From: Candidatus Omnitrophota bacterium
Lineage (GTDB): Bacteria; Omnitrophota; Gorgyraeia; Zapsychrales; JANLHA01
Length of the DNA: 52,143 nt
Direction of reading: 5' to 3'
Assembly: GCA_017995055.1 (NCBI GenBank)
Contig: JAGOJP010000002.1
Location: 1 to 52,143 of the forward strand
Every line of letters begins with the position of its first letter. Within the stretch, counting starts at the first letter, position 1. Shown here in pieces: positions 81 to 41,145 of the stretch. Both the position numbers and the translations under genes were made by a program. The notes under the pieces are model-generated. The model worked only from the letters and a program-made list of their open reading frames with translations. It was not told where the DNA came from and searched no databases.

Positions 81-1646
81 TCAATTCTCCAAGACCTCAT
101 AAATTTTGTACTCTGTCCCCTGCCCCCACACCAGCGCAACACTCACCTGGCATTGCCGGATATCTTCCAGAGTCATTTCCTGGGTATCAATATTAAACGG
201 AATGAGGACATCGTTCCGGCCGAGGGTCGAGAGAGGCACATCAGGCAGGTTCAATTCAGGCAGGATATATTTCTCTTTATAATCTTCAAAAATAAAATAC
301 CGGACGTTCAGGTTCCGGATTCTTCCGCACGCATCATTCTTTTCCCGCAGATAAAGATACGACGTCATATACCGCCGGGTTAAAAAACCCAGTTCCCGCG
401 GCTTCCCGAAAACAAACCTGTCTTCCGGGTGAGTATTGTTTTGTATCCAGGAAACCATACTCCTGGCATCCTTCTTATAAATCTGATCATGATCGTAGTC
501 AAAAACCGTGAGGACACTGATGATGTTATGGAAAACAAGAAAAACAATAATCCATCTCGCGATCCGGGGTAAATGCCAGGCTTTCAGGATCGCAGAACGG
601 CTGACCGTCCGCACCCCTTCCAGGGCGGAAAGGATCAAAAACCCGATGACAGGGTAGAAATACCGTGTCCCGCCGCTGAAATACCAGACAAGATTCCCCA
701 GAAGATAGACGGCGATAAAAGTTTCAATCAGCGTCAAAGTCCGTTTCCTGAGTTTATAGAGGAAGCCCAGGACCAGCCCCCCGAAAAAAACCGGCGTAAC
801 AATATTTATAGTCACATTCAACAGGCGGAAAAACCATAAAGCGAACGCTGTTTTACACGGGAAGAAAAAAATAGCGAGCGTTTTTATGACCTGCGGCATG
901 GCCTGACCGCTCATCAGCAGCCATTGGGGAACAGGGCGCGCGACTTCGTGATAATAATTCAGGCCGTCCGTCCCGAAGCCCTGCTGGATGACCCAAGACA
1001 GGCTCAGCCCCGCCAGGATAAAAATCACAGCCCGCCTTTCCGGTTTTCTCTGGGAAAAATAAATCAGCAGGGCAATAAACAAAGCAAGGCCTGCCCAGCG
1101 GACAAAAAAAGCAACGCACATCAGAAGTGTGCCCCCGGTCAGGCAAAGAAAAGCCGCGTGGGCTCTGTTATGTTGTCTGGCGTCCTCATAACGAAGCCAT
1201 AAAAAAATCGAGGCGGTTATGAAAAACAAAAAAGCCGGATCAGACATGATATCCTGTTTAAAAATAAAAAAATCCGGGGACGTCAGGAAAAGGACGGCGG
1301 GCCAAAACGCATCGTCTTCCCCCAGTCGCTTTCGCATGATCGCGTACAACACCCAAATAAATCCGAGGAAAAAAATGATATTCGGCAATTTGAGGATCCG
1401 GAAATTCAGGCCGCCATATTTCAACAAAGGGGTCAAAATCAGAGGGAACCCAGGAGGGGTGACGACACTTCTGCCTATATAATATGTGTGGGCATAATCC
1501 TTATGTTCAATAATATTCCGGGCATGGCCGAGATACTGGCCGAAATCCGCGCACCAGGTGTGCCCGTCCTGGAGGGTTGCCACATTGACGATGAGATAAA
1601 GGACAGATAAAACGACAAGACAAAACCTGGACTTCCTGGGCATCAT
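81..1646 (-). CDS. Polytopic GT-C-fold glycosyltransferase, ArnT/PMT-like (GT39/GT83 type)
   Basis: 521-aa ORF with many predicted TM helices followed by a soluble C-terminal part. The N-terminal loop/TM pattern resembles undecaprenyl- or dolichyl-phosphate-sugar transferases. Family call by eye only. Confidence 0.5.
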   Translation of the reverse strand: MMPRKSRFCLVVLSVLYLIVNVATLQDGHTWCADFGQYLGHARNIIEHKDYAHTYYIGRSVVTPPGFPLILTPLLKYGGLNFRILKLPNIIFFLGFIWVLYAIMRKRLGEDDAFWPAVLFLTSPDFFIFKQDIMSDPAFLFFITASIFLWLRYEDARQHNRAHAAFLCLTGGTLLMCVAFFVRWAGLALFIALLIYFSQRKPERRAVIFILAGLSLSWVIQQGFGTDGLNYYHEVARPVPQWLLMSGQAMPQVIKTLAIFFFPCKTAFALWFFRLLNVTINIVTPVFFGGLVLGFLYKLRKRTLTLIETFIAVYLLGNLVWYFSGGTRYFYPVIGFLILSALEGVRTVSRSAILKAWHLPRIARWIIVFLVFHNIISVLTVFDYDHDQIYKKDARSMVSWIQNNTHPEDRFVFGKPRELGFLTRRYMTSYLYLREKNDACGRIRNLNVRYFIFEDYKEKYILPELNLPDVPLSTLGRNDVLIPFNIDTQEMTLEDIRQCQVSVALVWGQGTEYKIYEVLEN

Positions 1647-1736: not shown

Positions 1737-3776
1737 TCACGCCCTTTTTTGTTCAAGGCCCCGATAGGACAGGGCATACATCGCCATCGCCAAGATAAAC
1801 AAAAAACGGAATCCCGTCAACATGGAAAAATACTCGCAGCACCCCCCCATGATGGCCCCCAATAAATTGCTGGCAAAATCGCTCGAAACATTCTTGGAAT
1901 TCCGGAACGAACCGGCAAATATGATTCCGGCGAAGAAAATGGGCAAAGACAAAAGGCCAGAAGAGATGATAATAGCGAGGTGGCGATCCAGCCCCAGGAA
2001 AACCTCAGGCTTGAGCAGCCAATTCAAAAAAAGTGAAAACATAAGCCCAGCATACATCAGACGGGTGTTGATACTTCTGGCCCTTTCAACATAAAAAGTC
2101 GCAAACACAATCATAATCAATATCGATATAATAACGGCGGAGTTGACGATCCAGGTCGAGCCGAATAAAAGGGCGAACCGGGTAATACTGGTCGTCTCCA
2201 GCAGCATAAACCCCGAACCAAGGAAAAAGAAATGGTTGTTGAAATTTTTGACCGACACCGATTTAAAACAGACCACGCTCAAGACCGACAAAACAAGCAC
2301 AAAAAGAATAATGACAAGATAATGAGAAGGAATGCCTCTTTTCATCAAATATAAATACGGCCAGTCATCCCGGATAGCGTGCGCGGCTTTATCAAACCCG
2401 TCGTATTCTGTAAATCCAGGAGCATCAATGGGGCCCATCCCCTTCACGCCCGGCCCGGCCAGGAATATCGCCGTGTCGTTATCAACATAGGTCGACGCCC
2501 GGACGACCTTCAGGTCATCCTTAAACACGTCCTTGAGGGCCACATATAATTTGGCCGCAACCCATTCCTTAAACACATAGTATGTCAGGGACAAGACACC
2601 GTCCGGGGCGAGGCGGCTTTGAATGTCTTGGAAACTTTCCTGGGTGTAAACGAAATTATCCAGCCGGACGCTCGAAAACTGGGACAACACCTTATGCGCG
2701 TCCAGATAACCGAAGGTGATTAAATCAAACTTGTCATCCGTCTTTTTTATAAAAGACCTCGCGTCATCGACAACCACGCGAACGCGTTCAGACCGGTACG
2801 GCTTCTCCGGATGCAGACGCGACCCCAATCCGGCGATGAAAGGGTCAATCTCGACCGCAGCGATCGCCTGGCTGTCCATGCGCAGGGCGGCTGAGGCGTC
2901 ATTCCCGGAACCGGCGCCTAAAATCAACACTTTCCGCGGATGAAAAAGTTTATATGGGAATTCATAAATTTCTTTATAGCGGCTGAGGCCCGGGGATTCC
3001 TTCAGGGCCTCGTCCGATAAATCAAACGCGTTTTGATGAAACATGTTATTAGCGGCAATCTCGTACCCGATGATTTTCTGCAGGCGCTGTGACATAATAG
3101 GCTGCATATCAATTTTATAATACGGCGACCAATAGGCCCCCTTTCCCAAAGGAGGGACAACAAAAAGGATAGCGGCAACAATCAACACCTGCAACGCCAG
3201 CCGTCTTACCGAAGACCGGTAAAACCACAGGGTGAGAGATAACCCCAATAAAAACCAATACACCGGATCCATCATCCGGTAAGACAAAAAGGAAAAAGCC
3301 GCTGTTCCTAGAATACTGCCCAGGATATTGATCGTATAAGCGACAAGCGGTTTAAAGTCCTTGAGGCACCGGCCCAGCTTCTGCCCCGGCGGGACAAAAA
3401 GCAGCGTATTGAAAACAAAAACAATAAGAACAACAAGCAGGAAATTCACTTTCCCTTCGTAAAATCCCAGCAAATGCTCTGTCTGCAGGAATGCGGCATT
3501 AACCTCAACATTATGAAACAGGAAGGCCAACCCGACATAGGCCAGCATGCTCAAGGGGAAAAAATTCATAAGGTCGTATTTATGCTCGGAAAGCATACAG
3601 CCGATCCCCATGCCCAGAAAGGCCGAAATGAGAACAATATTCGTGAAATACGCGATAATCTGAATACTGGAAGGGATCCAGCGGATAAGCAAAATTTCAA
3701 AGAATAAACTGATGAAACTGATCAAAAAAAGCTCTACCATTTTAGAGAAACCCGATTGGGGGGTCGTGCCGACCAT
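1737..3776 (-). CDS. Membrane-embedded spermidine/spermine-synthase-like SAM-dependent transferase
   Basis: 679-aa ORF. A central soluble domain carries the SAM-binding motif VLILGAGSGNDASAAL and DLITFGYLDAH, flanked by N- and C-terminal multi-TM blocks. The true start may be the internal MVELFL. Confidence 0.6.
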   Translation of the reverse strand: MVGTTPQSGFSKMVELFLISFISLFFEILLIRWIPSSIQIIAYFTNIVLISAFLGMGIGCMLSEHKYDLMNFFPLSMLAYVGLAFLFHNVEVNAAFLQTEHLLGFYEGKVNFLLVVLIVFVFNTLLFVPPGQKLGRCLKDFKPLVAYTINILGSILGTAAFSFLSYRMMDPVYWFLLGLSLTLWFYRSSVRRLALQVLIVAAILFVVPPLGKGAYWSPYYKIDMQPIMSQRLQKIIGYEIAANNMFHQNAFDLSDEALKESPGLSRYKEIYEFPYKLFHPRKVLILGAGSGNDASAALRMDSQAIAAVEIDPFIAGLGSRLHPEKPYRSERVRVVVDDARSFIKKTDDKFDLITFGYLDAHKVLSQFSSVRLDNFVYTQESFQDIQSRLAPDGVLSLTYYVFKEWVAAKLYVALKDVFKDDLKVVRASTYVDNDTAIFLAGPGVKGMGPIDAPGFTEYDGFDKAAHAIRDDWPYLYLMKRGIPSHYLVIILFVLVLSVLSVVCFKSVSVKNFNNHFFFLGSGFMLLETTSITRFALLFGSTWIVNSAVIISILIMIVFATFYVERARSINTRLMYAGLMFSLFLNWLLKPEVFLGLDRHLAIIISSGLLSLPIFFAGIIFAGSFRNSKNVSSDFASNLLGAIMGGCCEYFSMLTGFRFLFILAMAMYALSYRGLEQKRA

Positions 3777-4015: not shown

Positions 4016-4046
4016 AAAAAAAGCACTCCTCAGAGTGCTTTTTTAT
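4016..4046. terminator. Bidirectional intrinsic terminator downstream of the hydrogenase-like operon
   Basis: AAAAAAAGCACTC-CTCA-GAGTGCTTTTTTA: a 7-bp GC-containing stem extended by A/T runs on both sides, 36 nt after the stop at 4082. Confidence 0.6.
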
Positions 4047-4081: not shown

Positions 4082-4861
4082 TTACCTTCCCTGTTTCCCG
4101 CCCAAACGTTCTCGGCCCATAATTTTTAAAAGGCCATCCAATATTGTCAACGGGTGCGGCGGACATCCCGGGACATAGAGGTCGACCGGGATCACAGAAT
4201 CAGCGCCGTTCTTGACCTCCTCATGCCCCGAGAAAGGCCCCCCGGAGATCGCACACGCGCCAACGGCAATAACAAGCTTGGGCGGCGGCACGGCCTGATA
4301 GGTTTTCTCCAACGCCAGACGCATGTTGTCCGTGACCGGCCCGGTGACAAGAATCCCGTCCGCGTGGCGAGGCGAAGCGACGAACTGAATGCCAAACCGG
4401 GCCAAATCATAACTTAAGGTGGCTAAAACATTCGTGTCAGCCTCGCAGGCGTTGCACCCGCCCGCGCTGACCTGGCGCAGTTTAAGCGACCGGCCAAAAA
4501 TATTTTTTATCCTTAAAGGAACGGCCTGTTCAGGCTGGCGTGACGAAAAAGGTAAAACAAGAGATTCCCTTTCCCGCTCTGCCAGACGGTAGTTCCGGGT
4601 AAATGTCACCATCCGGCCCGGACAGGCACGCTGGCATTCTCCGCAAAAAAGGCATTTTCCCAAATCAAGGCTGGGGGCAGCCGCCGACCCCGCGATCGCG
4701 CCCACCGGGCAGACCGCCCGGCATTCCGCATAATCTTCTGCAGAAACCTGCGGGGCAATATTCGGGCGGCCTAAAAACCTTTGCGGCAACGTCTCCTCTT
4801 TAACCGGAAACGGCATAGTCCGGTACCCCTGCTTGAACCTTGCGCATAATGTCTTAAGCAT
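4082..4861 (-). CDS. Hydrogenase-like complex small subunit: ferredoxin-like (HyfH/HycF-type) domain fused to a NuoB/HycG/HyfI-type domain
   Basis: N-terminal CRAVCP ... CLFCGECQRACP motifs. C-terminal GGCNACE ... GACAISGG ... PGCPPHP matches the four-Cys proximal-cluster pattern of NuoB/HycG. Confidence 0.8.
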   Translation of the reverse strand: MLKTLCARFKQGYRTMPFPVKEETLPQRFLGRPNIAPQVSAEDYAECRAVCPVGAIAGSAAAPSLDLGKCLFCGECQRACPGRMVTFTRNYRLAERERESLVLPFSSRQPEQAVPLRIKNIFGRSLKLRQVSAGGCNACEADTNVLATLSYDLARFGIQFVASPRHADGILVTGPVTDNMRLALEKTYQAVPPPKLVIAVGACAISGGPFSGHEEVKNGADSVIPVDLYVPGCPPHPLTILDGLLKIMGRERLGGKQGR

Positions 4862-4878
4862 GGCAACTCCTGCCCTCC

Positions 4879-6393
4879 TTATAAATCATGGCCGCAGTAC
4901 GATAAATTAAAGCTTTTGTTACATAGCGGGAAATCAGAAATTTCCTCCCCCCGCAGAGCCATCGCCAACCCCATCCAGTTATGAAATGATGGATCCACGA
5001 TCTTATACCGCCGGATTCTCCCGTCCTGCCCGGTCAGGGCGGTATGGCAAATCTCCCCCCGCCAGCCTTCCACCAGCGAAACGACCATGCCATCATGCTG
5101 CAGGGACGGCACGCGCACGGAAATCTTCCCGGCCGGCAAATTATTTAACTGATCCAGGATAAATTCCACGGACCGCTGTATCTCAAGCCACCTCACAAAG
5201 GCACGGGCGAACACATCCCCGGAGGCGCATGTGGACACAGGAATCTGAAAAAACTGGGAAGCCCCTGCCGGGAAATCAAAACGGACATCCCGCTCAATGC
5301 CGCAGGCCCGGGCCGCGACACCGACCAGGCCCAGGTCCCAAGCCGTCCGGGGCGCAACCACGCCGGTTTCGTCAAACCTGTCTATAACCAAAGAGGAATC
5401 CCAGATCAAAGAAATCGCATTCTGCACGTCGGCGAAAACCTTGGTCAAACGCCTCTTCACTTCCGTGATGATGGCGTCGTCCATATCGTAGCTGACCCCG
5501 CCGGGCCGGATCATATTGCGGCCAAAACGGTTTCCGCAAATCAAGGCGGTCATGTTCAAAAAATCCCCCCGGAGCCGGCCGCAGTAGGAAGATGTCGGTA
5601 AATAGCCAACATCGCCCGCCATCGCGCCCAGGTCGCCCGTATGATTCGCCAACCGCTCCAGTTCAAGCATGACGGCCCGAATCATGGCGGCCCTTAAAGG
5701 CACTTCGCATCCCGAAAGCCCTTCGATGGCCTGGCAATACGCCAGAGCATGTCCCACCGTGGTGTCTCCGGCCGCTGTTTCCATATAATGGATGGTCCGT
5801 TGATCAGGCCCGCCGATCAAGGCTTTCTCAATGCCGCGATGCTGATAACCCAGGGAAATCTCCAAATGAAACACCTGCTCCCCGTGGCATTGAAACCGGA
5901 AATGCCCCGGCTCAATGATCCCCGCGTGCACGGGCCCCACAGCGACTTCATGAATTTCCTCTCCGTGAATTTTCAAAAAATCCATCTCGGAAGGCACACG
6001 CTCCGCCGTTTCGTACCGTCCTCCCTCCCCCTGCTTCCACGTCGCATGAAACCGGATTGGCTTAAGCCACGGATGTCCTTCAGGCCGGAGCCCCCACTGC
6101 TCAAAAAGCTCCCGCTCAAACCAATGGACCTGCGGGATGGGAACCGTCAAAGAGGCATAAGAATCTTTAACAGACGTGATAAACGGTTTTAAATATCCGT
6201 CCTTATCATACGCCAATATCATCACAAGGGTGATTGTTCTGCTGTCTTGCGGGTACCCGAAAAACGAAGCGACTCTCGCGCCATTCTGAATTTCCTCAAT
6301 CACACGACGGCGGAAATCCTCAAACGGCAACAGAGGGACATCCGTCACGGACTGAGCCCGGCCGTTATATATTTTCAAAAAATAATCCGGCAT
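4879..6393 (-). CDS. Hydrogenase-like complex large subunit (NuoC+NuoD fusion, HycE/HyfG-like) apparently lacking NiFe ligands
   Basis: HRGIEK, ELERLANH and GPVHAGIIEPGHFRF motifs are typical of HycE/NuoD. The ORF-track start is 6444. I moved it to the ATG at 6393 (MPDYFLKIY), which forms a TGATG stop/start overlap with the upstream gene and follows GGAGGA. Confidence 0.8.
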   Translation of the reverse strand: MPDYFLKIYNGRAQSVTDVPLLPFEDFRRRVIEEIQNGARVASFFGYPQDSRTITLVMILAYDKDGYLKPFITSVKDSYASLTVPIPQVHWFERELFEQWGLRPEGHPWLKPIRFHATWKQGEGGRYETAERVPSEMDFLKIHGEEIHEVAVGPVHAGIIEPGHFRFQCHGEQVFHLEISLGYQHRGIEKALIGGPDQRTIHYMETAAGDTTVGHALAYCQAIEGLSGCEVPLRAAMIRAVMLELERLANHTGDLGAMAGDVGYLPTSSYCGRLRGDFLNMTALICGNRFGRNMIRPGGVSYDMDDAIITEVKRRLTKVFADVQNAISLIWDSSLVIDRFDETGVVAPRTAWDLGLVGVAARACGIERDVRFDFPAGASQFFQIPVSTCASGDVFARAFVRWLEIQRSVEFILDQLNNLPAGKISVRVPSLQHDGMVVSLVEGWRGEICHTALTGQDGRIRRYKIVDPSFHNWMGLAMALRGEEISDFPLCNKSFNLSYCGHDL

Positions 6394-7871
6394 CAGAATC
6401 CTCCCAATTCCCGGGCTACCCCTTCCAAGACGAGCCGCAGCCAAGACGGGAAATAAACACCCAACACCATCACTAGAATAAAAAATAACGCCGGGACGCC
6501 TGTCCGCCCCCCCAGGGCTCGATGGCCGTCGTCATCCCGGCTGCCTTTTTGGCCGGAAACGCCCAGGGTCATCATCATGAATATCCGGGCCATGCCGATA
6601 AAAATAATCGCGAGCATAGCCAGGAAGATGCTGGCAGCCCCGTACCGGCCCTGCGATAAAATTTCTTTTAAAATAATAAATTTACCTAAAAAAATCCCGG
6701 ACGGCGGCGTCCCTGTAATTAATAAAAAACCGGCCATCCACAGGACCCCTGACCAACGCGTTTTCCCGGACAGGATCCCCTGGATTTCAGATATCTTCTT
6801 TGTTCCAAAATGCGATAATATATTTCCGGCGACAAAAAACAATCCCGCCTTCGTCAAAGAGTGGCCCAGCATATTAACCAGCGCGCCAAAAACAGCATTG
6901 TGCCCCAGGCCCACCCCTAGCGTTATGATCCCCATATGTTCCACGCTCGAATAGGCTAGCATCCTCTTATAATCCTTTTGTCCCAAAATAAAAACAGCCG
7001 CAAAAACAAGAGACACAAGTCCAAAAACAACGAAAATATCCTGGCAATAAGACTGAATCCCTGCCGCCACGCACACCTGATATCCGCGCAGGATGCCCAA
7101 AAACGCGCAATTCAGGAGAGCGCCGGAAAGGAGCGCGGAAATGACCGAGGGCGCTTCACTATGCGCGTCAGGAAGCCATGTGTGAAAAGGCGCCAAGCCC
7201 ATTTTTGTCCCGTAGCCGACAAACAGAAGAAGAAACGCCGCTTTCAACCACGGGATATGAATAGCTCCGGCGTTTACGATCATCAGTCTCAAAATCATTT
7301 CCCCCTGGTGGTTGTAGGCCACGGCCAGGAAGAAAACACCCAGCAGGGCCACGGCTATTCCGACCGAGCAGATTAAAAGATATTTCCAGGTCGCTTCCAG
7401 GGACCGTTTGGTCCGGTGAAAATATATCAAAGGAGCGCTGGCCAGCGTCGTCGCCTCAATCCCGACCCATAAAACCGCCAGATGCTGGCTGGCGATAACA
7501 ACGGTCATTGTCGAAAGGAATAATAAAAAACATCCGCTAAAAACCGCTTCATGAGAAAAAAACCGGCGTTTTCCCTTCTCTTCCCCGGAGGATCGGCTTT
7601 CCGCGGCTAAATACTGGATTCCATAGAGAGCCGCGCCAAAAAACAACAGGCTGGTTATGAGCAAAAACACCAGCCCCGTGCTGTCAAAAACAAACCATCC
7701 CTCCCCCTGCGGCCCGCCCCATGTTCCCCACGCCGCACACGCCAGGGCCAGGTGAAGACTGGAACAAAGAATGATCAGAACCCGGCGCAGGAAATCATTC
7801 CGGATTAAGAAAGAAATCAGCCCTAAACATAAAGGAATGGTGATCAACAACAAGGTTATCATAGTCAGCAT
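6393..7871 (-). CDS. Antiporter-like membrane subunit (HyfF/HyfD, NuoN/NuoM family)
   Basis: 492 aa, polytopic, with WLPDAHSEAPSVISALLSGALLN and a YSSVEHMG-type motif characteristic of the Mrp/NuoLMN antiporter-like family. Confidence 0.8.
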   Translation of the reverse strand: MLTMITLLLITIPLCLGLISFLIRNDFLRRVLIILCSSLHLALACAAWGTWGGPQGEGWFVFDSTGLVFLLITSLLFFGAALYGIQYLAAESRSSGEEKGKRRFFSHEAVFSGCFLLFLSTMTVVIASQHLAVLWVGIEATTLASAPLIYFHRTKRSLEATWKYLLICSVGIAVALLGVFFLAVAYNHQGEMILRLMIVNAGAIHIPWLKAAFLLLFVGYGTKMGLAPFHTWLPDAHSEAPSVISALLSGALLNCAFLGILRGYQVCVAAGIQSYCQDIFVVFGLVSLVFAAVFILGQKDYKRMLAYSSVEHMGIITLGVGLGHNAVFGALVNMLGHSLTKAGLFFVAGNILSHFGTKKISEIQGILSGKTRWSGVLWMAGFLLITGTPPSGIFLGKFIILKEILSQGRYGAASIFLAMLAIIFIGMARIFMMMTLGVSGQKGSRDDDGHRALGGRTGVPALFFILVMVLGVYFPSWLRLVLEGVARELGGF

Positions 7872-7873
7872 GC

Positions 7874-8533
7874 CTATTTTGAAATAACAATATCTTTCAG
7901 TTCCGTTAATTTTTGCGTATCAATATGGTCGAATTGCCGGCTGATATGGAAAATCGTAATCCCCATAACAAACACAGCTACAAAAATATCCAGCAGTATG
8001 GCCAACTCGACCAGCAAAGATTGCCCCCCTAAAAAAACGGCACCGAAAAGATAGATGCCGTTTTCCAGAATCAGGTACCCGATCACCTGACTAATCGCCT
8101 TCATCCGGCTAATAATTAAAAAGACCCCGGTAAAAAACGTGGCGAAAGATACCGGCGCGGCCAGAGTGGACACAAGCGGGCCAGTATGCAGCAACCGCCG
8201 GCTGAGCCAAAAGCCCATCGCGAACATAACAACGCCCATCAACAGCGAAAAAGGATATCCGCCGATCGGTTCAACCTCTTTCCGGATACCGGCTTCCTGC
8301 AACGCGCGGAACAGCAGCCAGGGGAACACGATCCCTTTGAGAATAACGCTGAAAAAAGACGCAATTATGGGGCCGGACGCTGCGTGATGAAGTTCAATCA
8401 CAACCGGCAAAACGCCTACCAGGACCCCCTGAACAGCGGCGATCTGTATGCAGCTTCGGATACGGCTTGACGAAAGCATCATCAGGTTCAACAGCAGAAC
8501 CGCCACAATCATAAAATCAACCCATGTGTTCAT
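7874..8533 (-). CDS. Small polytopic membrane subunit, HyfE-like
   Basis: 219 aa with about 7 TM helices. Size and position between the NuoH-like and NuoN-like genes match hyfE. Only a 2-nt gap to the next gene. Confidence 0.6.
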   Translation of the reverse strand: MNTWVDFMIVAVLLLNLMMLSSSRIRSCIQIAAVQGVLVGVLPVVIELHHAASGPIIASFFSVILKGIVFPWLLFRALQEAGIRKEVEPIGGYPFSLLMGVVMFAMGFWLSRRLLHTGPLVSTLAAPVSFATFFTGVFLIISRMKAISQVIGYLILENGIYLFGAVFLGGQSLLVELAILLDIFVAVFVMGITIFHISRQFDHIDTQKLTELKDIVISK

Positions 8534-9445
8534 CTAAACCCTCACGGTCAGGATTAAAGCCACGGCGGATAATGCCAAGGCAATGATTAAAAAATGCGGC
8601 ACTTTTAACAACCGCAAACGCGCCAGGGTTGATTCCACAACCCCGACGATAACCGCAAGCAAGACCATCGTCAGGACAAAAAGAACGCTGTCTATCATCC
8701 ACCCGCGGGAAAAAGTCCCCAAAAACATCCCGGCCAGCAATGTTCCTAAAAGCCAAAATTTTATAGCGGCCGCGTAAAGAATATACGCCAAATCAACCCC
8801 GCCATGATCCAGAACCATAACCTCGTGAATCATGGTCAACTCCAGATGCGTGTTCGGATCGTCAACCGGGATCCGGCAATTTTCCGCCAAAAAAATAATA
8901 AAGAGCGCTCCCAGGACTAAAAAAACCACCGGCCCGTACACAGACCAGGAATTCATAACCTCAGGGGAAAATATGCCGGAAAACGATAACCGCCCCGTAA
9001 CACGCGCTAAAGCCGCAAGGCTTAAAAACAACGCCGGCTCCGCAAACAGGGCAAACTGGACCTCCCGGCTGGCGCCCATGCCTTCAAAACTCGAGCCTGT
9101 ATCCAGGGCTGCGAGAACAGTAAAAAAACGCGCGAGCCCTAACAAATAAATAAACAAAATGATATCGCCGTCAAATTGAATCAACGATGGGTGTCCGGCA
9201 AAAGGGACCAAGCATGCGGCCGCTATCAGAGCGCTGAGACTGACCATAGGCCCCGCGATGAACACCCCTGTTGTTGTCCTGCTATAAACAGCCCCCTTTT
9301 GCAGCAATTTAAAAATATCATAATACGGTTGCAGAAGCGGGCTTCCGTGACGCCCGGCGAAAAAAGCTTTTGTCCGGTTAATCACCCCGAAAAGGAATGG
9401 CGCAAACGCCAGGACGATGGTCAATTGAATTATCTTGATCGGCAT
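8534..9445 (-). CDS. NuoH/HycD/HyfC-like membrane subunit
   Basis: 303 aa, polytopic, with the ENCRIPVDDPNTHLELTM(I)HE motif typical of HycD/HyfC. Abuts both neighbouring genes. Confidence 0.8.
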   Translation of the reverse strand: MPIKIIQLTIVLAFAPFLFGVINRTKAFFAGRHGSPLLQPYYDIFKLLQKGAVYSRTTTGVFIAGPMVSLSALIAAACLVPFAGHPSLIQFDGDIILFIYLLGLARFFTVLAALDTGSSFEGMGASREVQFALFAEPALFLSLAALARVTGRLSFSGIFSPEVMNSWSVYGPVVFLVLGALFIIFLAENCRIPVDDPNTHLELTMIHEVMVLDHGGVDLAYILYAAAIKFWLLGTLLAGMFLGTFSRGWMIDSVLFVLTMVLLAVIVGVVESTLARLRLLKVPHFLIIALALSAVALILTVRV

Positions 9446-9447
9446 TT

Positions 9448-11427
9448 CTATAATTTCCAGACAAAAAGCGCCACAAGAGTGAATAAAATATATAAAATGT
9501 AACTCTGCAATTTCCCGTGTTGCACCCAGGTCAATCTCTCCGTCAAACGATGAATCAATCTCAGCATAGGGCGGAAAAGCGTTTCACTAAACAGGTCAGC
9601 CGTTTCCGTTTTAAAAGAGGAATGGTCCGGGAAATATGCGGTTATTTTCACGGCATGTTTCTGTGTTCTTAAAATGCCTTTAAAAAAATCTACAATCGGC
9701 TGGGCAAACGATGAGGCCGTATATTGCATACGGGGGGCAGGACAGGCGTACCCGCAATCCCAGGTCAAAGAGCGCGCTGTCACGCGCTTTCTTAAAAGTC
9801 CGTGACGCAGCAGCACGCTTAAAAAAAAGAGGATAAAAAGAAATAAGGCCATAACGAGAATAGAAATTAATGGCGGAAGCGCAACCCCAAGGGATTGTTG
9901 TATCGAACCAAGCGGCGTACCCGTCATATCTGCGATAACCCGGGCAAACATCCCGAGGTACCAAGGAGCAGTTAACCCCATAACAAGACAAACCGCGGCC
10001 AGGACCGCCATGGACGTCCGCATGAAAACCCCGGGTTCACCGGCGTGCTGGGCATATGCGCTTCTGGGTTCGCCAAGAAAAATAATCCCGAAGGCTTTCG
10101 TAAAACAGGCGGCCGCCAGGCCTCCGATTAAAGCCAGCGATAGCATGGTTCCCAAGGCGATAAAAACCAGCAGTGTGGATCCGAATACATTTTTAAAGGA
10201 GACGAAATAAATTAAAAACTCGCTTATAAAACCATTAAAAGGCGGCAGGCCACAAATCGCAGCCGCGCCGGCAAGAAAACAAAAACCGGTGAGAGGCATC
10301 TTCTTCAGCAAACCTCCCAGGACATCCATGTCCCGTGTGGCGGTTTCCTGATAAACAGCACCTGCCCCCAGGAAAAGGAGCCCTTTAAAAAAGGCGTGAT
10401 TGACGACATGCAATAAAGCCCCCGTAAATCCCAGAACCATCAAAAGAAAATTATTAAGGCTCAGCCCCAGCACCCCCAAACCGATGCCCATCGTTATAAT
10501 GCCGACATTTTCGATGCTTGAATAGGCGAGAAGCCGCTTAATATCGTGCTGCGCCAGAGCAAACAAAACCCCCAGAATCCCGGAAATACTTCCGAGAGCG
10601 ATCAACAGGTAGCCCCACCAGGCGCAGGGCGCCCCTAAAAAAGTTAAAATACGCAAAAGGCCGTAAAGCCCTGTTTTGATCATAACCCCGGACATAAGCG
10701 CGGACACATGGCTCGGCGCGGCCGGGTGGGCTTCGGGCAACCAAATGTGCATGGGCATAAAACCGGATTTTGTCCCAAATCCGATCAAGGCACAAAGGAA
10801 AATGACAGAAGGCGCGGTTCCGGATACGGCTCCCGGCCACCGGCTAAAATCAAACGAACCGCTATCCTTCCCTAGTAAAATAAACATCGCCAATAAAAAA
10901 AGCGTCCCGATATGCGTCGCGATCAGATACACCAGCCCGGCCCGGGGCACCCCCTTCTTTTCCCCTTCAAATAACACCAGGAAAAAAGAACTGACAGACA
11001 TCATTTCCCAGGCCGTCAAGAAAAGGACAGCATTGCGGGCCGTCACAACAAGAACCATGCTGGCAACGAGGATATTATAAAAAAACCACGCGGCCCCGAT
11101 ATTTTTCTGGCCATAGTAATGCCTTAAATATTCCGATCCATACAAAGCGGATAATGCGGACAAAAAAAAGATGGGGAATAAAAAGACCGCGCCCAAAGCA
11201 TCAACTTCAAGGGAGAAAGAACCGTAAGGCACCGTCCAGGGGAAGAGGAACACGGCAGCGCCGGGATTATTGTGAAGAAAACAAAAAGCGCCCAACCCCA
11301 CAAGGCAGGCGATAACCGCTCCCCCCGCGCCGATGGTATTGGCCAATTTGGCTGACCGACTTAAGCCAAGGGAAACAACTCCGCTTATCATCAACAGCCC
11401 CAGGGAAAACAATATGATATTCATCAT
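9448..11427 (-). CDS. NuoL/HyfB/HycC-like antiporter-like membrane subunit
   Basis: 659 aa, with WLPEAHPAAPSHVSALMSGVMIKTGLYGLLR and LAYSSIENVG motifs. First gene of the operon. Confidence 0.8.
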   Translation of the reverse strand: MMNIILFSLGLLMISGVVSLGLSRSAKLANTIGAGGAVIACLVGLGAFCFLHNNPGAAVFLFPWTVPYGSFSLEVDALGAVFLFPIFFLSALSALYGSEYLRHYYGQKNIGAAWFFYNILVASMVLVVTARNAVLFLTAWEMMSVSSFFLVLFEGEKKGVPRAGLVYLIATHIGTLFLLAMFILLGKDSGSFDFSRWPGAVSGTAPSVIFLCALIGFGTKSGFMPMHIWLPEAHPAAPSHVSALMSGVMIKTGLYGLLRILTFLGAPCAWWGYLLIALGSISGILGVLFALAQHDIKRLLAYSSIENVGIITMGIGLGVLGLSLNNFLLMVLGFTGALLHVVNHAFFKGLLFLGAGAVYQETATRDMDVLGGLLKKMPLTGFCFLAGAAAICGLPPFNGFISEFLIYFVSFKNVFGSTLLVFIALGTMLSLALIGGLAAACFTKAFGIIFLGEPRSAYAQHAGEPGVFMRTSMAVLAAVCLVMGLTAPWYLGMFARVIADMTGTPLGSIQQSLGVALPPLISILVMALFLFILFFLSVLLRHGLLRKRVTARSLTWDCGYACPAPRMQYTASSFAQPIVDFFKGILRTQKHAVKITAYFPDHSSFKTETADLFSETLFRPMLRLIHRLTERLTWVQHGKLQSYILYILFTLVALFVWKL

Positions 11428-11560: not shown

Positions 11561-12238
11561 TTATTCCTTTATGGACTCTTCAACCCGCGTAATTTCTTTC
11601 AGGATAACTTCCCTGGACTTTTGATGCACAATCGTATCGAGGACTTTCGCGTCTTTTAAAACATAGGCGATGCGCGAAAGCATTTTAAGGTGGCTCCTGA
11701 CCGTCGGGCTGATTAAGGTCACCAGGCAATTCACCTGTTTTCCGTCTATAGCGCCATAATCAACCGGCTCTTCCAGGAAACAAACGGCAACGATCGCGTG
11801 AGAGATGTGCGTGACGACAGGATAACGCGCGTGCGGGATAGCGATTCCATTACCGAGGCCGGTGGAGCCCAATTCCTCCCGGACAAGCATGGCTTCCAAA
11901 AGGCTCTCTTTTTTTACATCTTCCGGCAAATTGAGAAGCTCCAAAACAGCCTTCAGCAAAGTCTTTTTGTCATGGCCTTCAATGCGATAATAAATTCCGC
12001 CTTTTTTAACGGCTTCCGTTAATGACACCGGCTTAACATCCTTCTCATCTGCCTGATGAAGGATGGCTTGAGAAACATTGATTTTATGAGCTGTGGCCCA
12101 ATCCAATATCTCGATTCGGTTAAACCGGTACTGATCGTGAATCCGGTAGAAAGGGATGGTTTGTTGTTTAATCCAACGGTAAATGGTCCTTTCCGTCACG
12201 TTCAACAGTTGCGATAAATCCTTAACACTCAGCTGCAT
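11561..12238 (-). CDS. HTH (excisionase/MerR-type) - PTS EIIA type-2 (Fru/Ntr) fusion regulator
   Basis: HTH LLNVTERTIYRWIKQQTIPFYRI followed by an EIIA-2 domain with the phospho-His signature GIAIPHAR. Start set at ATG 12238 (MQLSVKDL), preceded by GGAGAG. The longer ORF start at 12307 is overlapped by a promoter. Confidence 0.75.
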   Translation of the reverse strand: MQLSVKDLSQLLNVTERTIYRWIKQQTIPFYRIHDQYRFNRIEILDWATAHKINVSQAILHQADEKDVKPVSLTEAVKKGGIYYRIEGHDKKTLLKAVLELLNLPEDVKKESLLEAMLVREELGSTGLGNGIAIPHARYPVVTHISHAIVAVCFLEEPVDYGAIDGKQVNCLVTLISPTVRSHLKMLSRIAYVLKDAKVLDTIVHQKSREVILKEITRVEESIKE

Positions 12239-12295: not shown

Positions 12296-12324
12296 ATAAT
12301 AGGACATGGGCGCCTATTTGTCAA
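12296..12324 (-). promoter_or_regulatory. Sigma70-like promoter of the HTH-EIIA gene
   Basis: On the minus strand: TTGACA (12324..12319), a 17-nt spacer, then TATTAT (12301..12296). A direct repeat ATAGATAT x2 at 12324..12331 and 12335..12342 (11-nt phase) lies just upstream. Confidence 0.45.
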
Positions 12325-12380
12325 TAGATATCATATAGATATGACTTTATGTTACAAAAAGTATTGAGGCCCATCAGGGG

Positions 12381-12516: not shown

Positions 12517-12924
12517 CTATTTTTTTAATTCAATCTTCTGCATCGCCGCCTCTCTGGCTTCCTTCGCCGTTTTCAGGGCGACATTTTTTTCTTCCGTAGC
12601 CGTTCGCATCGCCGCAGCCCGCTCTTCACCGCTCAATTTCTTGGCGGCGGCGACGGCTTCCTTAAATTTTTCCATAGCGGCCTGTTTCTCCGTTTTATAC
12701 GCGTCCCTCACAGTCGCCATTTCCGTTTTCGCATTCTCTTTTGTCTGATTCCAAGTTGCCTGAGAGGCCTCATGACGCCTCTCCCCCGATTGATGAGTTT
12801 CCCCCGCCTTGACTCGCAATTCTTTCTTTTGTTTTTCCCGTGGCGGCTTTGCCGCATCAACAGCCGGGGACAGCAGCCCTATCGCAAGCAGAGTAACAGC
12901 AGCCATTTTTATCACTCTTTTCAT
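12517..12924 (-). CDS. Small secreted Lys/Glu/Ala-rich protein, function unknown
   Basis: 135 aa with signal peptide MKRVIKMAAVTLLAIGLLSPAVDA. AGGAG lies 7 nt upstream of the ATG and a strong terminator follows. Low-complexity helical sequence. Confidence 0.5.
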   Translation of the reverse strand: MKRVIKMAAVTLLAIGLLSPAVDAAKPPREKQKKELRVKAGETHQSGERRHEASQATWNQTKENAKTEMATVRDAYKTEKQAAMEKFKEAVAAAKKLSGEERAAAMRTATEEKNVALKTAKEAREAAMQKIELKK

Positions 12925-13005
12925 TCACCGCTCCTTTCATGAAAACAACATCCCTGACTCTCCCCTATGTCAATAAAAAAGGTCCTCTGTCCAGCCGCCG
13001 TTTTT

Positions 13006-13206
13006 TCACCGCGAGTTTAAAAACCTCTCCCAGACAAAAATGATAAATTTCCCTAAGAGCCAAATGCCTGATATTACAAAAAGGAAAGCGAGGATTATTT
13101 TTAGGAAAAAACCAAAAACCATAATCAAAGGATAAAGCAGTATCCCGACCCCCGCCAAAATACTCACAGCCATCAGAAAAACCAGGCCGACGGCAAAAGC
13201 TTTCAT
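13006..13206 (-). CDS. Small two-TM membrane protein, function unknown
   Basis: 66 aa with two hydrophobic helices. AGGAG lies 9 nt upstream of the ATG at 13206. Confidence 0.45.
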   Translation of the reverse strand: MKAFAVGLVFLMAVSILAGVGILLYPLIMVFGFFLKIILAFLFVISGIWLLGKFIIFVWERFLNSR

Positions 13207-13400
13207 AGGTCTCCACTCCTGTTCTCTATAGGTTCATGCCAATAATATCTTCCCCCCCCGGAGTCCTGCGGGTCTCGGCTGTCACGGAATCCAGGATGCT
13301 CATGCCCCTCCACCCCGTATTGTACTGCATCCACCGTTGAAAGCAACAGATATAATCCTCCCTTCCTTTAAGAAAGCCGGCATGTTTATCATGAAGATGC

Positions 13401-36583: not shown

Positions 36584-37366
36584 TTATGTCTTAATTGCTG
36601 AAACTTTTATACTCACGATTGCGTCTTGAGCGCCCTCAAGATTATTAAACATGGCATCCACCGGATAACTCGCCTCTCTTACTATTTTGATATCCTTAAA
36701 CCCCGCCTTCTCAATAAAACCCAAATACTCGGCTTTCTTGATCGCTCCGGCAAGACAACCCACATACGCCTCAACCGAATCTTTAATCTCTTTCGGTAGT
36801 TCTTTCGCCAATACCAAATCAGAAACCATCAGCCTGCCGCCGGTTTTAAGCACTCGGAATGCTTCCTTAAAGACTGTCTCTTTATCCGGCGAGAGATTGA
36901 TAACGCAGTTTGAAATTATTACATCTATAGAAGTGTCCTCTACCGGCAGGTTCTCGATCTCTCCAAGACGAAACTCCACATTCGCATAGTTGCCTTTCTT
37001 AGCGTTCTCTTGGGCTTTAGCGACCATCTCAGGCGTCATATCAACTCCAAAAACTCTGCCGGTTTTTCCAACACGCTGAGCCGACAGGAATGCGTCAAGG
37101 CCCGCTCCACTCCCAAGGTCCAGAACGATATCACCTTCTTTTAATGAAGCAAGCGCAACCGGATTCCCACATCCAAAACCCAAATTCGCACCTTCCGGGA
37201 CAGCGTTTAGTTCCGAATCGCTATAACCAACTTTTTTGCTGATATTCTCTACCTGCGTTACGCCGCCACAGCACAAACTTGAAGAACAGCATGAATTCCT
37301 CTGCGACAACGCTTTTGCGTAGCCGGCTCTAACAATCTTTTTGATTTTATCCGCTTCATTTTTCAT
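36584..37366 (-). CDS. arsM: Arsenite S-adenosylmethionine methyltransferase
   Basis: N-terminal Cys cluster CCSSSLCCGG, SAM motif VLDLGSGAGLD, and conserved As-binding cysteines in ISNCVINLSPDK and YVGCLAGA. Confidence 0.85.
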   Translation of the reverse strand: MKNEADKIKKIVRAGYAKALSQRNSCCSSSLCCGGVTQVENISKKVGYSDSELNAVPEGANLGFGCGNPVALASLKEGDIVLDLGSGAGLDAFLSAQRVGKTGRVFGVDMTPEMVAKAQENAKKGNYANVEFRLGEIENLPVEDTSIDVIISNCVINLSPDKETVFKEAFRVLKTGGRLMVSDLVLAKELPKEIKDSVEAYVGCLAGAIKKAEYLGFIEKAGFKDIKIVREASYPVDAMFNNLEGAQDAIVSIKVSAIKT

Positions 37367-37527
37367 TTATATCCCTTCCCTCTTCATTTTAGAGACATTT
37401 TTTTATCAATCTGCCTTTTGATTACCTCTCTAACAAAATCCAGTGCCCCCATCTTTATGGCGATCAATTATGATCTGCTCAATCCTAAACAGATACTCTT
37501 CGCTGAGATTAATCGTCTTTTTAATCG

Positions 37528-38733
37528 TTATTTAACTATCGCCCCAAAAATCATCCCGCTTATGGTAGCCATGACGACAACCAGCGCTACATACACCACT
37601 GTCTTCGGCGTGCCGATAACACCCCGAATAACCAGCAGGCTCGGCAAACTCAACGCGGGTCCGGCCAAAAGAAGCGCCAGCGCAGGCCCTTTTCCCATGC
37701 CCGACCCAATGAGCCCTTACAAAATCGGCACCTCCGTCAGTGTGGCGAAATACATGAACGCCGCGATGATCGAGGAAAAAAAGTTCGCCCTCAAAGAATT
37801 GCCCCCGACCAGCGTCTCCACCCAGCGGGAAGGGACAAGGCCTTCATGACCGGCCCTGCCCAATAAAAACCCGGAAATCAAAACCCCTCCTAAAAGAAGC
37901 GGCAAGATCTGAAAAGCGAACCCCCAGGAAGCGGACGTCCATTCTTTAAGCTCGTCCTTCTTGAACCAATGAATAAGTGCCAGTCCTAAAACTATTAAAA
38001 AAAATCCGGCAATCCACCATCGAGATGAATAGATCAAGCTCCATATACTGGTATCCCCTTCTATAGGCTTGCCCCAATTGGCAAACACAAGTATTGCCAC
38101 CATCGAGAAGAAATAGACACTATCTTTCCATAACGGACGGCTTGCTTTAACTTCGCCGAATTGGAGATCCCCGTTCGCATGGCGCGCGCGTTCTTCCTTC
38201 AGGAAAATTAAGTGCATGAGCAAGCCGATGACGACACTAAAAAAAACGGCCCCGACAGCACGCGCCAAACCTAACGGCCAGCCAAGAATACGGGCCGTCA
38301 AAATGATCGCTAAAACATTTATGGCAGGCCCTGAATAGAGGAAGGCGATCGCAGGTCCAAGCCCAGCCCCTCTCTTATAAATCCCCGAGAACAACGGCAG
38401 AACCGTACAGGAACAAACAGCGAGAATAGTCCCGGATACTGAAGCCACGCTGTAAGAAAGAAACTTATTCGCCTTAGCCCCGAAATACTTCATCACAGAG
38501 GCTTGGCTGACAAATACCGAAATAGCTCCGGCAATAAAAAAGGCTGGCACAAGGCACAGCAGCACGTGCTCGCGGGCGTACCATTTTACTAAGGCCAGGG
38601 CCTCGAATACCGCGTTAACGAAGCGCAAATTTTCAACCGGCAAATAAAAGCATGCCAGGAAAGCCGCTACAACGCACAAAAATCTCTTCCCTTCTTTCAC
38701 TTTTTGACCACCTTTCCTCCTACCGTACAGCAT
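37528..38733 (-). pseudogene. arsP: ArsP/DUF318-type permease interrupted by an in-frame TAA
   Basis: ORF 37717..38733 ends ...TLTEVPIL-TAA. The same frame continues GLIGSGMGKGPALALLLAGPALSLPSLLVIRGVIGTPKTVVYVALVVVMATISGMIFGAIVK-stop (to 37528), the conserved C-terminal repeat of this family. It also has the SCTVLP Cys motif. An alternative GTGA-coupled start lies at 38700. Confidence 0.75.
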
Positions 38734-39392: not shown

Positions 39393-41024
39393 CTAACGGC
39401 CAGCCATCATGGCCTGCACATCTTCGGCGACAATGCTTATCGGCTTGATGTTAAACTTTTCAACCAGCACCTTCGCCACATTCGGGGATAGAAACGCGGG
39501 CAACGTAGGCCCTAAGCGGATGCCTTTTATACCGAGATGCAACAACGCTAAAAGAACGGCGACGGCCTTCTGTTCATACCAGGCGATATCAAATGATATC
39601 GGAAGCTCATTGATATCTCCAAGCCCGAAAACCTCCTTTAATTTCAGCGCGACAACGGCCAGAGAATAAGAATCATTACATTGTCCTGCGTCTAAAACAC
39701 GCGGGATGCCGTTGATATCACCCAGCGGTAATTTGTTATAACGGTACTTAGCGCAACCCGCGGTTAAAATAACCGTGTCTTTGGGCAGGCTTTCGGCGAC
39801 TTCCGTAAAATAGTTTCTTGTTTTCTGGCGGCCATCACATCCGGCCATAACAATAAACCGCTTTATCGCTCCCGACTTGACAGCTTCAACAATTTTGTCA
39901 GCCAAGGCGATAACCTGATTATGCGCGAAACCGCCGACGATCTCGCCGGTTTCGATTTCCTTGGGCGGGGGGCATCTTTTAGCCAGTTCGATGATCTCGC
40001 GAAAGTCTTTTTTCCCGCCTTCCGGCCTGTCCGGGATGTGTTTCACTCCCGGATATCCAGCCATGCCGGTCGTAAATATCCTGTCTTTATAGGAATCTTT
40101 GACCGGGATGATACAGTTTGTTGTCATCAGGATAGGGCCGTTAAAGGTTTCGAAATCCTGATTCTGGCGCCACCATGAACTGCCGTAGTTGCCGACAAAA
40201 TGATCATACTTCTTGAAAGCAGGATAATAATTTGCCGGAAGCATTTCGCTGTGGGTATAGACATCAACCCCTGCGCCTTCGGTCTGTTTCAGCAATTCCT
40301 CCATGTCCTTGAGGTCATGACCCGAGATAAGGATGCCGGGGTTGTTCCTCACGCCGAGGTTGACCTTTGTCATTTCCGGACTGCCGTATGTTTCCGTATT
40401 GGCTTTATCCAGCAAGGCCATCGCCTTAACCGCAACCCCTCCGGTTTCCAGCACCAGGGCGGTCAGCGCGTCAGCTGACAGATTTTTTGTAATAGCCGCA
40501 AGACCTTTATACATAAATTTAAAGATATCCTCGTCGTAGAAACCAAGCATGGCCGCATGATCGGTATAAGCGGCAATCCCTTTCAAGCCAAAAAGCATTA
40601 AAGATTTTAACGAGCGGATATCTTCGTTGTCACTATAGGAAAGCGGACTCACCTCCAAGGACTTGATCAGGAAAGCCTCCTTTGTCTCCGCCGACCATAC
40701 GGCCGCATCGTGTAAATCTTTCTGGGAAATCTGCGCTTTAGATTTCACTTCCTCCCGCAAGGCCAGCGCCTTCTTGATAAGGGCCGTTATCCTGTCCTCA
40801 TCGAAGTTCGCGTTAGTGATCGTTGAAAACAGCGCCTGACAGGTAAAGACCCCGTATTTTTTATCCAAAGAACCGGCTTGTTCTGCATAAATAGAAAATC
40901 CCTGCAAAGTATAGACCAAAAGATCCATGAGATCGGCAGCCCTTTCGTCCTTCCCGCAAACACCTCTAACTTTACATCCGGTATTGTTTACGGTTTCTTG
41001 ACACTGAAAACAAAACATTCCCAT
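39393..41024 (-). CDS. hcp: Hybrid-cluster protein / hydroxylamine (NO) reductase
   Basis: 543 aa with N-terminal MFCFQCQET...C...C cluster motif and conserved hybrid-cluster ligand regions throughout. Confidence 0.92.
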
Positions 41025-41145
41025 AGCGCCCTCCTTTTTAGAAATGAATCTGCTGTCCCTTTTATTCCAATTTTAAAAAAATTTTTATTCATGATTGTTT
41101 CTTCCTTCACCAAAGCCGTGCTTCATTTCCGATATGATCAAAATT

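Follow-up and report, generated by a model that had tools for sequence, protein, structure and literature searches.

A putative seven-gene Ehr module from an Omnitrophota-like host: a relative of Hyf-type hydrogenases without nickel-iron ligands, linked to an EIIA(Ntr)-like gene

Introduction

What could a membrane complex built like a group-4 [NiFe]-hydrogenase do once the residues that hold the nickel-iron centre have been replaced? The question is raised by a cluster of minus-strand genes in a 52,143-nt stretch of contig JAGOJP010000002.1, from a Candidatus Omnitrophota bacterium; the whole stretch is referred to here as the window. Judging from the comparisons presented below, the cluster is an Ehr (energy-converting hydrogenase-related) complex, a member of a known but functionally unsolved family, in an Omnitrophota-like host. 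Ehr complexes hold an intermediate place between complex I and the group-4 hydrogenases. Hundreds of species from many phyla carry them, among them such environmentally important hosts as Nitrospira, NC10, Geobacter and Planctomycetota, and for about 20 years they have gone without an assigned function. They were first named in Geobacter, and the class has been recognized since 2005 (Coppi 2005; PMC7894505) and figures in numerous genome papers. The literature describes them as relatives of group-4 hydrogenases that lack Ni-Fe ligands and have no known function (PMC6349859, PMC10284858, PMC12342949, PMC10432482), and a preliminary description of the locus, made from its sequence, had likewise regarded their role as unknown. 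The reading developed here, to which we assign a probability of roughly 55%, is that seven genes, R-EhrA-B-C-D-L-S, form a module derived from a Hyf-type group-4 hydrogenase and encode a ferredoxin-linked, ion-translocating redox complex that would operate under control of the nitrogen phosphotransferase system (PTS(Ntr)) type and without H2 chemistry.

Results

Gene content and family assignment

The genes of the locus, from R to EhrS, are as follows.

11561..12238, minus strand: R, 225 aa, an HTH_17 domain joined to a PTS EIIA(Ntr)-like domain (HTH_17, 2.3e-13; PTS_EIIA_2, 3.2e-28)
9448..11427, minus strand: EhrA, 659 aa, HyfB/NuoL-like antiporter-type subunit (NF005086 'hydrogenase 4 subunit B', 631 bits)
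8534..9445, minus strand: EhrB, 303 aa, HycD/HyfC/NuoH-like subunit (Pfam NADHdh, 2.8e-36)
7874..8533, minus strand: EhrC, 219 aa, HyfE-like subunit (NF008556 'hydrogenase 4 membrane subunit', 2e-22; Oxidored_q2, 1.2e-6)
6393..7871, minus strand: EhrD, 492 aa, HyfF/NuoM/N-like antiporter-type subunit (NF005044 'hydrogenase 4 subunit F', 315 bits; Proton_antipo_M)
4879..6393, minus strand: EhrL, 504 aa, NuoC+NuoD-fusion large subunit without NiFe ligands (Complex1_30kDa+49kDa)
4082..4861, minus strand: EhrS, 259 aa, NuoI/HycF-like ferredoxin domain followed by a NuoB/HycG-like domain (Oxidored_q6, 1.7e-28; Fer4)

The six structural genes are co-directional, follow the hyf order and are tightly packed, with successive junctions from EhrA to EhrS of 2, 0 and 2 nt, a 1-nt TGATG overlap and 17 nt, much as the preliminary description had it; the unit had, however, been taken as six genes, and the HTH+EIIA gene R was omitted. 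The length of EhrL is counted from an ATG, and a longer open reading frame (ORF) starting at TTG extends to 6444. Pfam, NCBIfam and BLASTP concur on the subunit identities proposed at the outset (NuoL-, NuoH-, HyfE- and NuoN/M-like proteins, a NuoC+NuoD fusion and a fused small subunit). Among E. coli proteins, the top BLASTP match of all six subunits is the Hyf/Hyc counterpart and not the Nuo one, at 28-40% identity: EhrA, with Proton_antipo_M as its Pfam domain, is 38% identical to HyfB, EhrB is 29-31% identical to HycD/HyfC and EhrS is 37-40% identical to HyfI/HycG. By name, the closest relatives are proteins from Candidatus Omnitrophota metagenome-assembled genomes (MAGs).

A scan of one genome per species identified Ehr relatives in at least 597 species genomes, with conserved gene order and large subunits of 50-61% identity. 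The matched taxa include Verrucomicrobiota, Planctomycetota, Desulfobacterota (Geobacter, Geomonas, Pelobacter), Acidobacteriota (Geothrix), Spirochaetota, Gemmatimonadota, Cloacimonadota, Lentisphaerota and Riflebacteria, among others; Ehr also occurs in Nitrospira and NC10. EhrL is 50-56% identical to proteins of Geomonas, Geobacter, Pelobacter and Citrifermentans, in which the layout is R-A-A-B-C-D-L-S. In the cultured Geomonas limicola (L058), R is followed by two EhrA genes and then by B, C, D, L and S, and EhrL is 54% identical to that of the window. The names carried by Geomonas-type homologs, searched for the label 'Ehr', were instead 'hydrogenase', 'NADH-quinone oxidoreductase subunit C' and 'Ni,Fe-hydrogenase III large subunit'. 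In G. sulfurreducens, GSU0739-45 encode EhrA-1, EhrA-2, B, C, D, L and S (PMC7894505), the same subunit types as in the window, a comparison made through this published layout and the Geobacteraceae relatives and not through the G. sulfurreducens proteins themselves. Geobacteraceae loci (L058, L037) resemble the window in having an R-like gene upstream and differ from it in carrying two EhrA copies, as 17 of the 57 genome loci do, where the window has one. Two further loci, L060 (13251-20569) and L062 (2250-9986), contain a second Hyf/Ehr-like cluster, with about 38% large-subunit identity, adjoining the Ehr operon.

Loss of the Ni-Fe ligands in EhrL

The two segments of EhrL that correspond to the metal-binding motifs of a [NiFe]-hydrogenase large subunit are located as follows.

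5749..5781, minus strand: former L1 motif ETAAGDTTVGH, residues 205-215, aligning with HycE DRVCGICGFAH
4882..4932, minus strand: former L2 region and C-terminus FPLCNKSFNLSYCGHDL, residues 488-504, aligning with HycE APLIIGSLDPCYSCTDR

The pairing of DRVCGICGFAH with ETAAGDTTVGH, and of HycE DPCYSCTDR with EhrL NLSYCGHDL, is the same in a phmmer alignment of EhrL with HycE of PDB 7Z0S (7Z0S_E, E=2.5e-44), in a MAFFT alignment with HycE, HyfG, NuoCD and 120 homologs, and in an hhalign profile-profile comparison of a 30-sequence family alignment with HycE/HyfG (probability 100%). The four [NiFe] cysteine columns are therefore occupied by A208, T211, S498 and G501. The suspicion, originally based on alignment by eye, that all four ligating cysteines are missing was thus borne out by the profile-guided comparison that had been proposed as its check. 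The replacement is a property of the family: in 324 homologs, across which the canonical L1/L2 CxxC ligands are likewise missing, S498 and G501 never vary and T211 is conserved at 95%. C500, one residue ahead of the former second L2 cysteine column, is not a canonical ligand; from its position in the alignment, it must lie near the old metal site. EhrL ends 2 residues past the H/R position of the L2 motif and therefore has no protease-cleaved C-terminal extension.

A tblastn search with E. coli queries returned no match to HypA-F, HycI or HycH in the 52 kb window, and no formate dehydrogenase (FDH) was found there, as first reported. Carbon monoxide dehydrogenase (CODH) was considered as well and rejected, since the sole Prismane-family protein of the window (39393-41024) is a hydroxylamine reductase/hybrid-cluster protein (Hcp).

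A rebuilt pocket with family-specific cysteines

The segments that replace L1 and L2 rank among the most conserved parts of EhrL. Over the same 324 homologs, conservation is 99% or more at E205, G209, D210 and H215, while N492, K493, S498, Y499, G501 and D503 are invariant or 99-100% conserved, and C491 and C500 reach 94% and 98%, respectively. The hydrogenase-type β1-β2 loop GPVHAGIIEPGHFRF, containing 'EPGHF', is kept, with E161 and H164 invariant. D261, also invariant, is a trait of complex I, the counterpart of Nqo4 Asp139, and HycE has Phe in its place; together with E161 and H164 it may outline a proton path to the pocket. The quinone head-group ligands of T. thermophilus Nqo4 are missing, Tyr87 being replaced by the invariant G209 and His38 by I160. 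Read from these alignments, the EhrL pocket combines traits of the two parental enzyme classes.

Six cysteines of EhrL (C169, C271, C286, C449, C491 and C500) are 94-99% conserved in the family and do not occur in HycE, HyfG or NuoCD. Three of them, C449, C491 and C500, fall in the former L4/L2 active-site segments. These residues are the chief unexplained feature of the complex and may, perhaps, make up a new metal or thiol site. An AlphaFold2 (AF2) model of EhrL, built from a 30-sequence alignment, has a mean predicted local distance difference test score (pLDDT) of 69.8; its pocket segments, residues 122-210 and 471-504, stay below 50. A Foldseek search with this model returned HycE (7z0s_E, TM 0.77) as top PDB match, followed by E. 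coli NuoCD, and no solved structure closer than HycE was present among the PDB matches.

Fe-S clusters of EhrS

EhrS retains the ligands of the NuoB-type proximal cluster, C136, C139, C203 and C233, which align with those of HycG, HyfI and NuoB. At the position of the NCC of NuoB, EhrS reads GGCNAC, the CxxC arrangement of hydrogenases and not the tandem CC of complex I. Two motifs were located in the ferredoxin domain.

4706..4744, minus strand: degenerate first Fe-S motif SAEDYAECRAVCP, with the first two Cys lost and C47xxxC51P left
4619..4654, minus strand: intact second Fe-S motif CLFCGECQRACP, C70, C73, C76 and C80-P (Cys columns in 67-70 of 73 homologs)

The cysteines of the NuoB-type and N6b-type clusters are conserved in 67-70 of the 73 homologs, and the ligands of the cluster retained in the ferredoxin domain are C70, C73 and C76 together with C51. 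Both the retained proximal-cluster cysteines and a ferredoxin domain with one full and one reduced motif had been noted from the start; the degenerate motif is the one that comes first. Its degeneration is real and yet peculiar to the clade of the window, not a trait of the Ehr family, as most relatives have a complete first motif, Cx3Cx2Cx3CP. The loss is shared with L093, L094 and L008, and partly with L005, which additionally lacks the fourth Cys of the second motif, a would-be ligand of the same cluster; similar, independent losses are seen in some Geobacterales (L052, L053, L069). We take the lost cluster to be the distal, N6a-type one and the retained cluster to be the N6b-type one adjoining the NuoB-type cluster, following the wiring of 2x[4Fe-4S] ferredoxins and Nqo9. 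With this usual wiring, the window complex would hold two Fe-S clusters instead of three.

Purifying selection and ion-translocation residues

All seven genes yield dN/dS values of 0.08-0.17 when the window is compared with L094 (about 80% amino acid identity), with EhrL at 0.11 and R at 0.08, and neighboring housekeeping-type genes fall in the same range. Against a closer, 98% relative (L093), five of the six genes give 0.09-0.14. The Ehr genes are hence under purifying selection and are no relic. The antiporter-type subunits retain the residues that align with the Glu of transmembrane helix (TM) 5, the Lys of TM7, the Lys of TM8 and the Lys/Glu of TM12 in NuoL/M/N. The EhrA residues E141, K220, K251 and E403, near-invariant in 61 homologs, correspond to NuoM E144, K234, K265 and E407; in EhrD, near-invariance over 73 homologs applies to E139 and K223, and the TM12 position is K397 in the window and Glu in most relatives. 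Ehr subunits have been found as protein in G. sulfurreducens (PMC7894505). A 2026 paper calls the Ehr of Geobacter 'already nonfunctional' (PMC13194489), a claim contradicted for the Ehr family by the dN/dS values and by the residues and motifs that have been kept.

The seventh gene, R

R was placed by its probable start, the ATG at 12238 (MQLSVKD...), which is preceded by a GGAGAG ribosome-binding site; the longest ORF begins at 12307. Against the PtsN model TIGR01419 the protein scores 86 bits, below the cutoff of 139 bits, and it has an additional HTH_17 domain; databases label it 'PTS sugar transporter subunit IIA'. The His of its GIAIPH motif (residue 136, 11831-11833) aligns with H73 of E. 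coli PtsN, the phosphorylation site, and His 183 aligns with H120; both are present in 42/42 orthologs. The conserved motif His suggests control by a PTS(Ntr)-type phosphorelay.

The linkage of R to Ehr extends well beyond the window. R precedes EhrA in many phyla, often with a spacing of 0-16 nt or a 4-nt overlap. A close R ortholog lies directly upstream of Ehr at 30 of the 57 genome loci with enough upstream sequence, and R or a divergent full-length R-like gene is present somewhere in the cluster at 44 of them. Conversely, when metagenome loci were picked by R homology alone, an EhrA-like gene came next in 63/66, the other three having less than 500 nt of downstream sequence; EhrA-D followed in all 29 R-picked loci with at least 5.5 kb downstream. 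In eight loci of Verrucomicrobiota/Opitutia (L050, L056, L057, L061, L065, L066, L074, L080), an R-like gene of about 20% identity stands before EhrA, often after an extra EhrA, which suggests, at the level of sequence, an older, fast-evolving form of the same linkage. No literature linking R-type HTH-EIIA genes to Ehr was found in the papers searched, and a search for literature on GSU0738 found nothing.

Two further features delimit the cluster.

12296..12324, minus strand: promoter-like site TTGACA-17-TATTAT upstream of R (11/12 positions, best in the region; consensus match only)
4017..4044, minus strand: terminator-like hairpin with a 12-bp stem and a T run, 38 nt past the EhrS stop (consensus match only)

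Together they suggest a transcription unit running from about 12324 to 4017. The promoter region (12296-12345, minus strand) is conserved with L094 4143-4205, from a relative with 80% amino acid identity, as GTCATxTCxATATGATATxTxTTGACAAAT ... TGTCCTAxTATGAC. Immediately ahead of the -35 hexamer, inspection by eye picked out a short palindrome, TCAT-N6-ATGA, which is likewise conserved with L094 and is a candidate operator; an inverted-repeat search of the R promoter returned nothing at the thresholds used. Upstream of R lie two ORFs of 135 and 83 aa (12517-12924 and 12965-13216, both minus strand) with no significant Pfam match, separated from R by a hairpin-like sequence, and genes of similar size (66, 129-135 aa) occupy the same place in L001, L094 and L005.

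Comparison with known systems

E. coli Hyf (HyfA-J) and Hyc (HycB-G; PDB 7Z0S) share with the window the gene order, the best subunit matches, the hydrogenase-type CxxC of the small subunit and the 'EPGHFR' loop. The window differs from them in lacking the NiFe cysteines, HyfA/HycB, HyfD and HyfJ/HycH, as well as HycI, Hyp and FDH within the 52 kb. Unlike in E. coli, the HycF- and HycG-like proteins are fused in one polypeptide, and EhrL carries the six new conserved cysteines. The EhrB loop between TM5 and TM6 is remodeled: a family-specific, His/Asp/Glu-rich sequence, IPVDDPNTHLELTMIHEVMVLDHGG, stands in place of PFD.AEAEQEL..EGP..EYSG.

Complex I and ferredoxin-dependent NDH-1/Fpo have a core homologous to that of the window (NuoB, C, D, H, I and L/M/N-like subunits), and the equivalent of Nqo4 Asp139 and the antiporter Lys/Glu chain of complex I are likewise kept. 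Missing by comparison are NuoE/F/G, NuoA, NuoJ, the Tyr87/His38 ligands and the tandem-Cys signature of cluster N2; a BLASTP comparison found no match to NuoA, NuoJ or NuoK among the Ehr proteins of the window.

The Mbx/MBS (membrane-bound sulfane reductase) complex of P. furiosus (PDB 6U8Y) is also a group-4 derivative that has dispensed with hydrogenase chemistry and kept Fe-S and ion-translocating subunits. It has, however, a 13-subunit, Mrp-type architecture, as opposed to the six Hyf-type structural genes of the window, and MbsL keeps part of the cysteine set where Ehr has none at the canonical columns. In phmmer comparisons EhrL matches HycE best (2.5e-44), then Nqo4 (6.8e-39) and MbhL (1.5e-37), and P. 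furiosus MbsL much more distantly (7.7e-18). Of the class proposed in the preliminary description, Ehr/Mbx-like, the Ehr half is upheld by the ligand loss, by the retained small-subunit cluster, by the subunit set and order and by the identity to Geobacteraceae proteins; the Mbx-like half is not.

Discussion

In the mechanism that we favor, a low-potential soluble carrier, most likely ferredoxin, would exchange electrons with the clusters of EhrS, and the NuoB-type cluster would pass them to the rebuilt pocket of EhrL, with its invariant Asp, Thr, Ser, Tyr and His and its family-specific cysteines. EhrA and EhrD would translocate H+/Na+ in step with this redox reaction, possibly in a reversible manner, by the kind of coupling seen in Ech, Mbh and formate hydrogenlyase (FHL) or in complex I. 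The acceptor would not be H+ and is probably not a quinone held in the fashion of complex I. R, as a DNA-binding EIIA(Ntr)-like protein, would set expression through a PTS(Ntr)-type phosphorelay reporting on carbon, nitrogen or energy status. The soluble donor is suggested by the genomic context: clustering of the flanking ORFs of 84 loci revealed no recurrent neighbor besides the Ehr genes and R, the rest being antisense artefacts. The idea of an FDH-Ehr complex, proposed for Margulisbacteria (PMC6349859), is thus unsupported by gene linkage, and if there is a donor at all, it must be a soluble carrier. An FDH-Ehr or CODH-Ehr supercomplex encoded in cis was accordingly rejected for the family.

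Several points weigh against this reading. The donor, the acceptor and the activity have been demonstrated for no Ehr complex. The distal Fe-S cluster, presumably the site of electron entry, has been lost in the clade of the window, which weakens a simple picture of ferredoxin docking. R is missing from 13 of the 57 loci, including those of Geothrix and Riflebacteria, and from a separately examined Nitrospirae MAG, and it could perhaps be a subunit or a post-translational regulator instead of a transcription factor. The canonical quinone ligands are absent (Tyr87 to G209, His38 to I160), and some Ehr-bearing lineages reportedly do without quinone synthesis (PMC6349859). Lastly, EhrS has a dN/dS of 0.41 against L093, a value resting on few substitutions.

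Among the alternatives, the complex might be a ferredoxin:(mena)quinone oxidoreductase, that is, a stripped-down complex I/NDH-1 that reduces quinone in a cavity formed by EhrL, EhrS and EhrB. Menaquinone respiration is present in many of the host phyla, the quinone-site Asp of Nqo4 has its invariant counterpart in D261, Y499 is an invariant Tyr in the pocket region, and Nqo4 is the second-best PDB sequence match of EhrL. We nevertheless consider this unlikely, given that the equivalents of Tyr87 and His38 are missing, that the NuoB-type cluster sits in a hydrogenase CxxC in place of the tandem CC, that NuoA and NuoJ homologs are lacking and EhrB is HycD-like, and that Riflemargulisbacteria with Ehr lack quinone biosynthesis (PMC6349859). 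One might also dispense with catalysis altogether and see in Ehr a regulated, Mrp-like cation/proton antiporter, in which the Fe-S module would be no more than a cap with a structural or redox-sensing role and R would make the connection to PTS(Ntr)-type control of ion homeostasis. The intact antiporter residues, the want of a partner oxidoreductase and of a recognizable substrate site, and the repeated loss of the distal cluster would all fit, and EIIA(Ntr) proteins regulate K+ transport in proteobacteria. Few parts of the complex, however, are as conserved as the two remaining clusters and the pocket, more so than a cap would lead one to expect, and the hydrogenase-type proton-relay loop has been retained, making an antiporter somewhat less likely still.

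The six cysteines of EhrL invite the proposal of a thiol, disulfide or sulfane reductase, or of a new metal centre, fed by the NuoB-type cluster with a logic like that of MBS or of ferredoxin:thioredoxin reductase. Their conservation in the family, their absence from HycE, HyfG and NuoCD, the location of C449, C491 and C500 in the former L4/L2 segments, and the place of C500 beside a former ligand column speak for it. The pocket segments, on the other hand, have pLDDT values below 50 in the AF2 model, C286 is predicted to be separated from C271 by the length of a 22-residue helix, and the similarity to MbsL is weak, so that we hold this to be improbable. That Ehr is a nonfunctional hydrogenase relic, as stated for Geobacter (PMC13194489), would explain the vanished metal ligands and the lack of a known function, and yet we find it scarcely credible: each gene has a dN/dS near 0.1 in the comparison with L094, the replacement motifs are invariant in 324 homologs from many phyla, gene order is kept across at least 597 species genomes and the proteins are expressed (PMC7894505). 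A true group 4a/4f [NiFe]-hydrogenase with unusual ligands, which the Hyf-like subunit order, the rank of HycE as best match by both structure and sequence and the conserved 'EPGHF' loop might recall, is just as implausible, with non-Cys residues in the four ligand columns by three alignment methods, no hyp/hycI in the 52 kb window, no C-terminal extension and a Nitrospira Ehr that is not H2-induced (PMC12342949).

A bolder version of the ferredoxin-linked reading can be formulated, in which the six cysteines and the invariant Asp, His and Tyr form a new catalytic centre, metal- or thiol-based, next to the NuoB-type cluster of a complex that moves electrons between ferredoxin and an acceptor in either direction, coupled to the proton motive force and under PTS(Ntr) control, with R as its dedicated phospho-switch. 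We regard this version as doubtful; were it true, Nitrospira, Geobacter and Omnitrophota could, for example, use Ehr to obtain reduced ferredoxin by reverse electron flow.

By itself, the locus adds one member, from an Omnitrophota-like lineage and with a clade-specific Fe-S loss, and leaves the picture of the family unchanged. What is gained is evidence of selection, a defined list of targets for mutation among the family-specific cysteines and pocket residues, and a dedicated HTH-EIIA(Ntr)-like regulator whose presence points to carbon, nitrogen or energy status as the controlling input, in a family with genetically tractable hosts in Geobacter. The seventh gene, the cysteines and the selection evidence make the function of Ehr more testable; they do not answer it.

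Other genes of the window

Scans for tRNA genes and Rfam families found nothing in the window. Downstream of the Ehr genes lie a membrane protein of 679 aa that includes a spermine-synthase-like domain (1737-3776, minus strand) and a PMT-family glycosyltransferase (81-1646, minus strand), both conserved only in the closest relatives (L001, L094) and not family-wide. Between 24670 and 27401 (minus strand), a cobalt/nickel transporter operon of the energy-coupling factor (ECF) type encodes CbiM, with a fused PDGLE/CbiN-like domain, CbiQ and CbiO; it is of interest because the adjacent 'hydrogenase' needs no nickel. An ArsP-type permease stands beside an S-adenosylmethionine (SAM)-dependent methyltransferase at 36584-38733 (minus strand), possibly an arsenic methylation and efflux pair. 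At 39393-41874 (minus strand), the hydroxylamine reductase/hybrid-cluster protein mentioned above (NF003658, 843 bits; Prismane/CODH superfamily) adjoins a 242-aa 4Fe-4S protein. The region 46840-50433 (minus strand) encodes a large, surface- or adhesin-like protein of 1197 aa with CARDB, DUF11 and Big_3 domains, followed by a 470-aa ORF without a family match.

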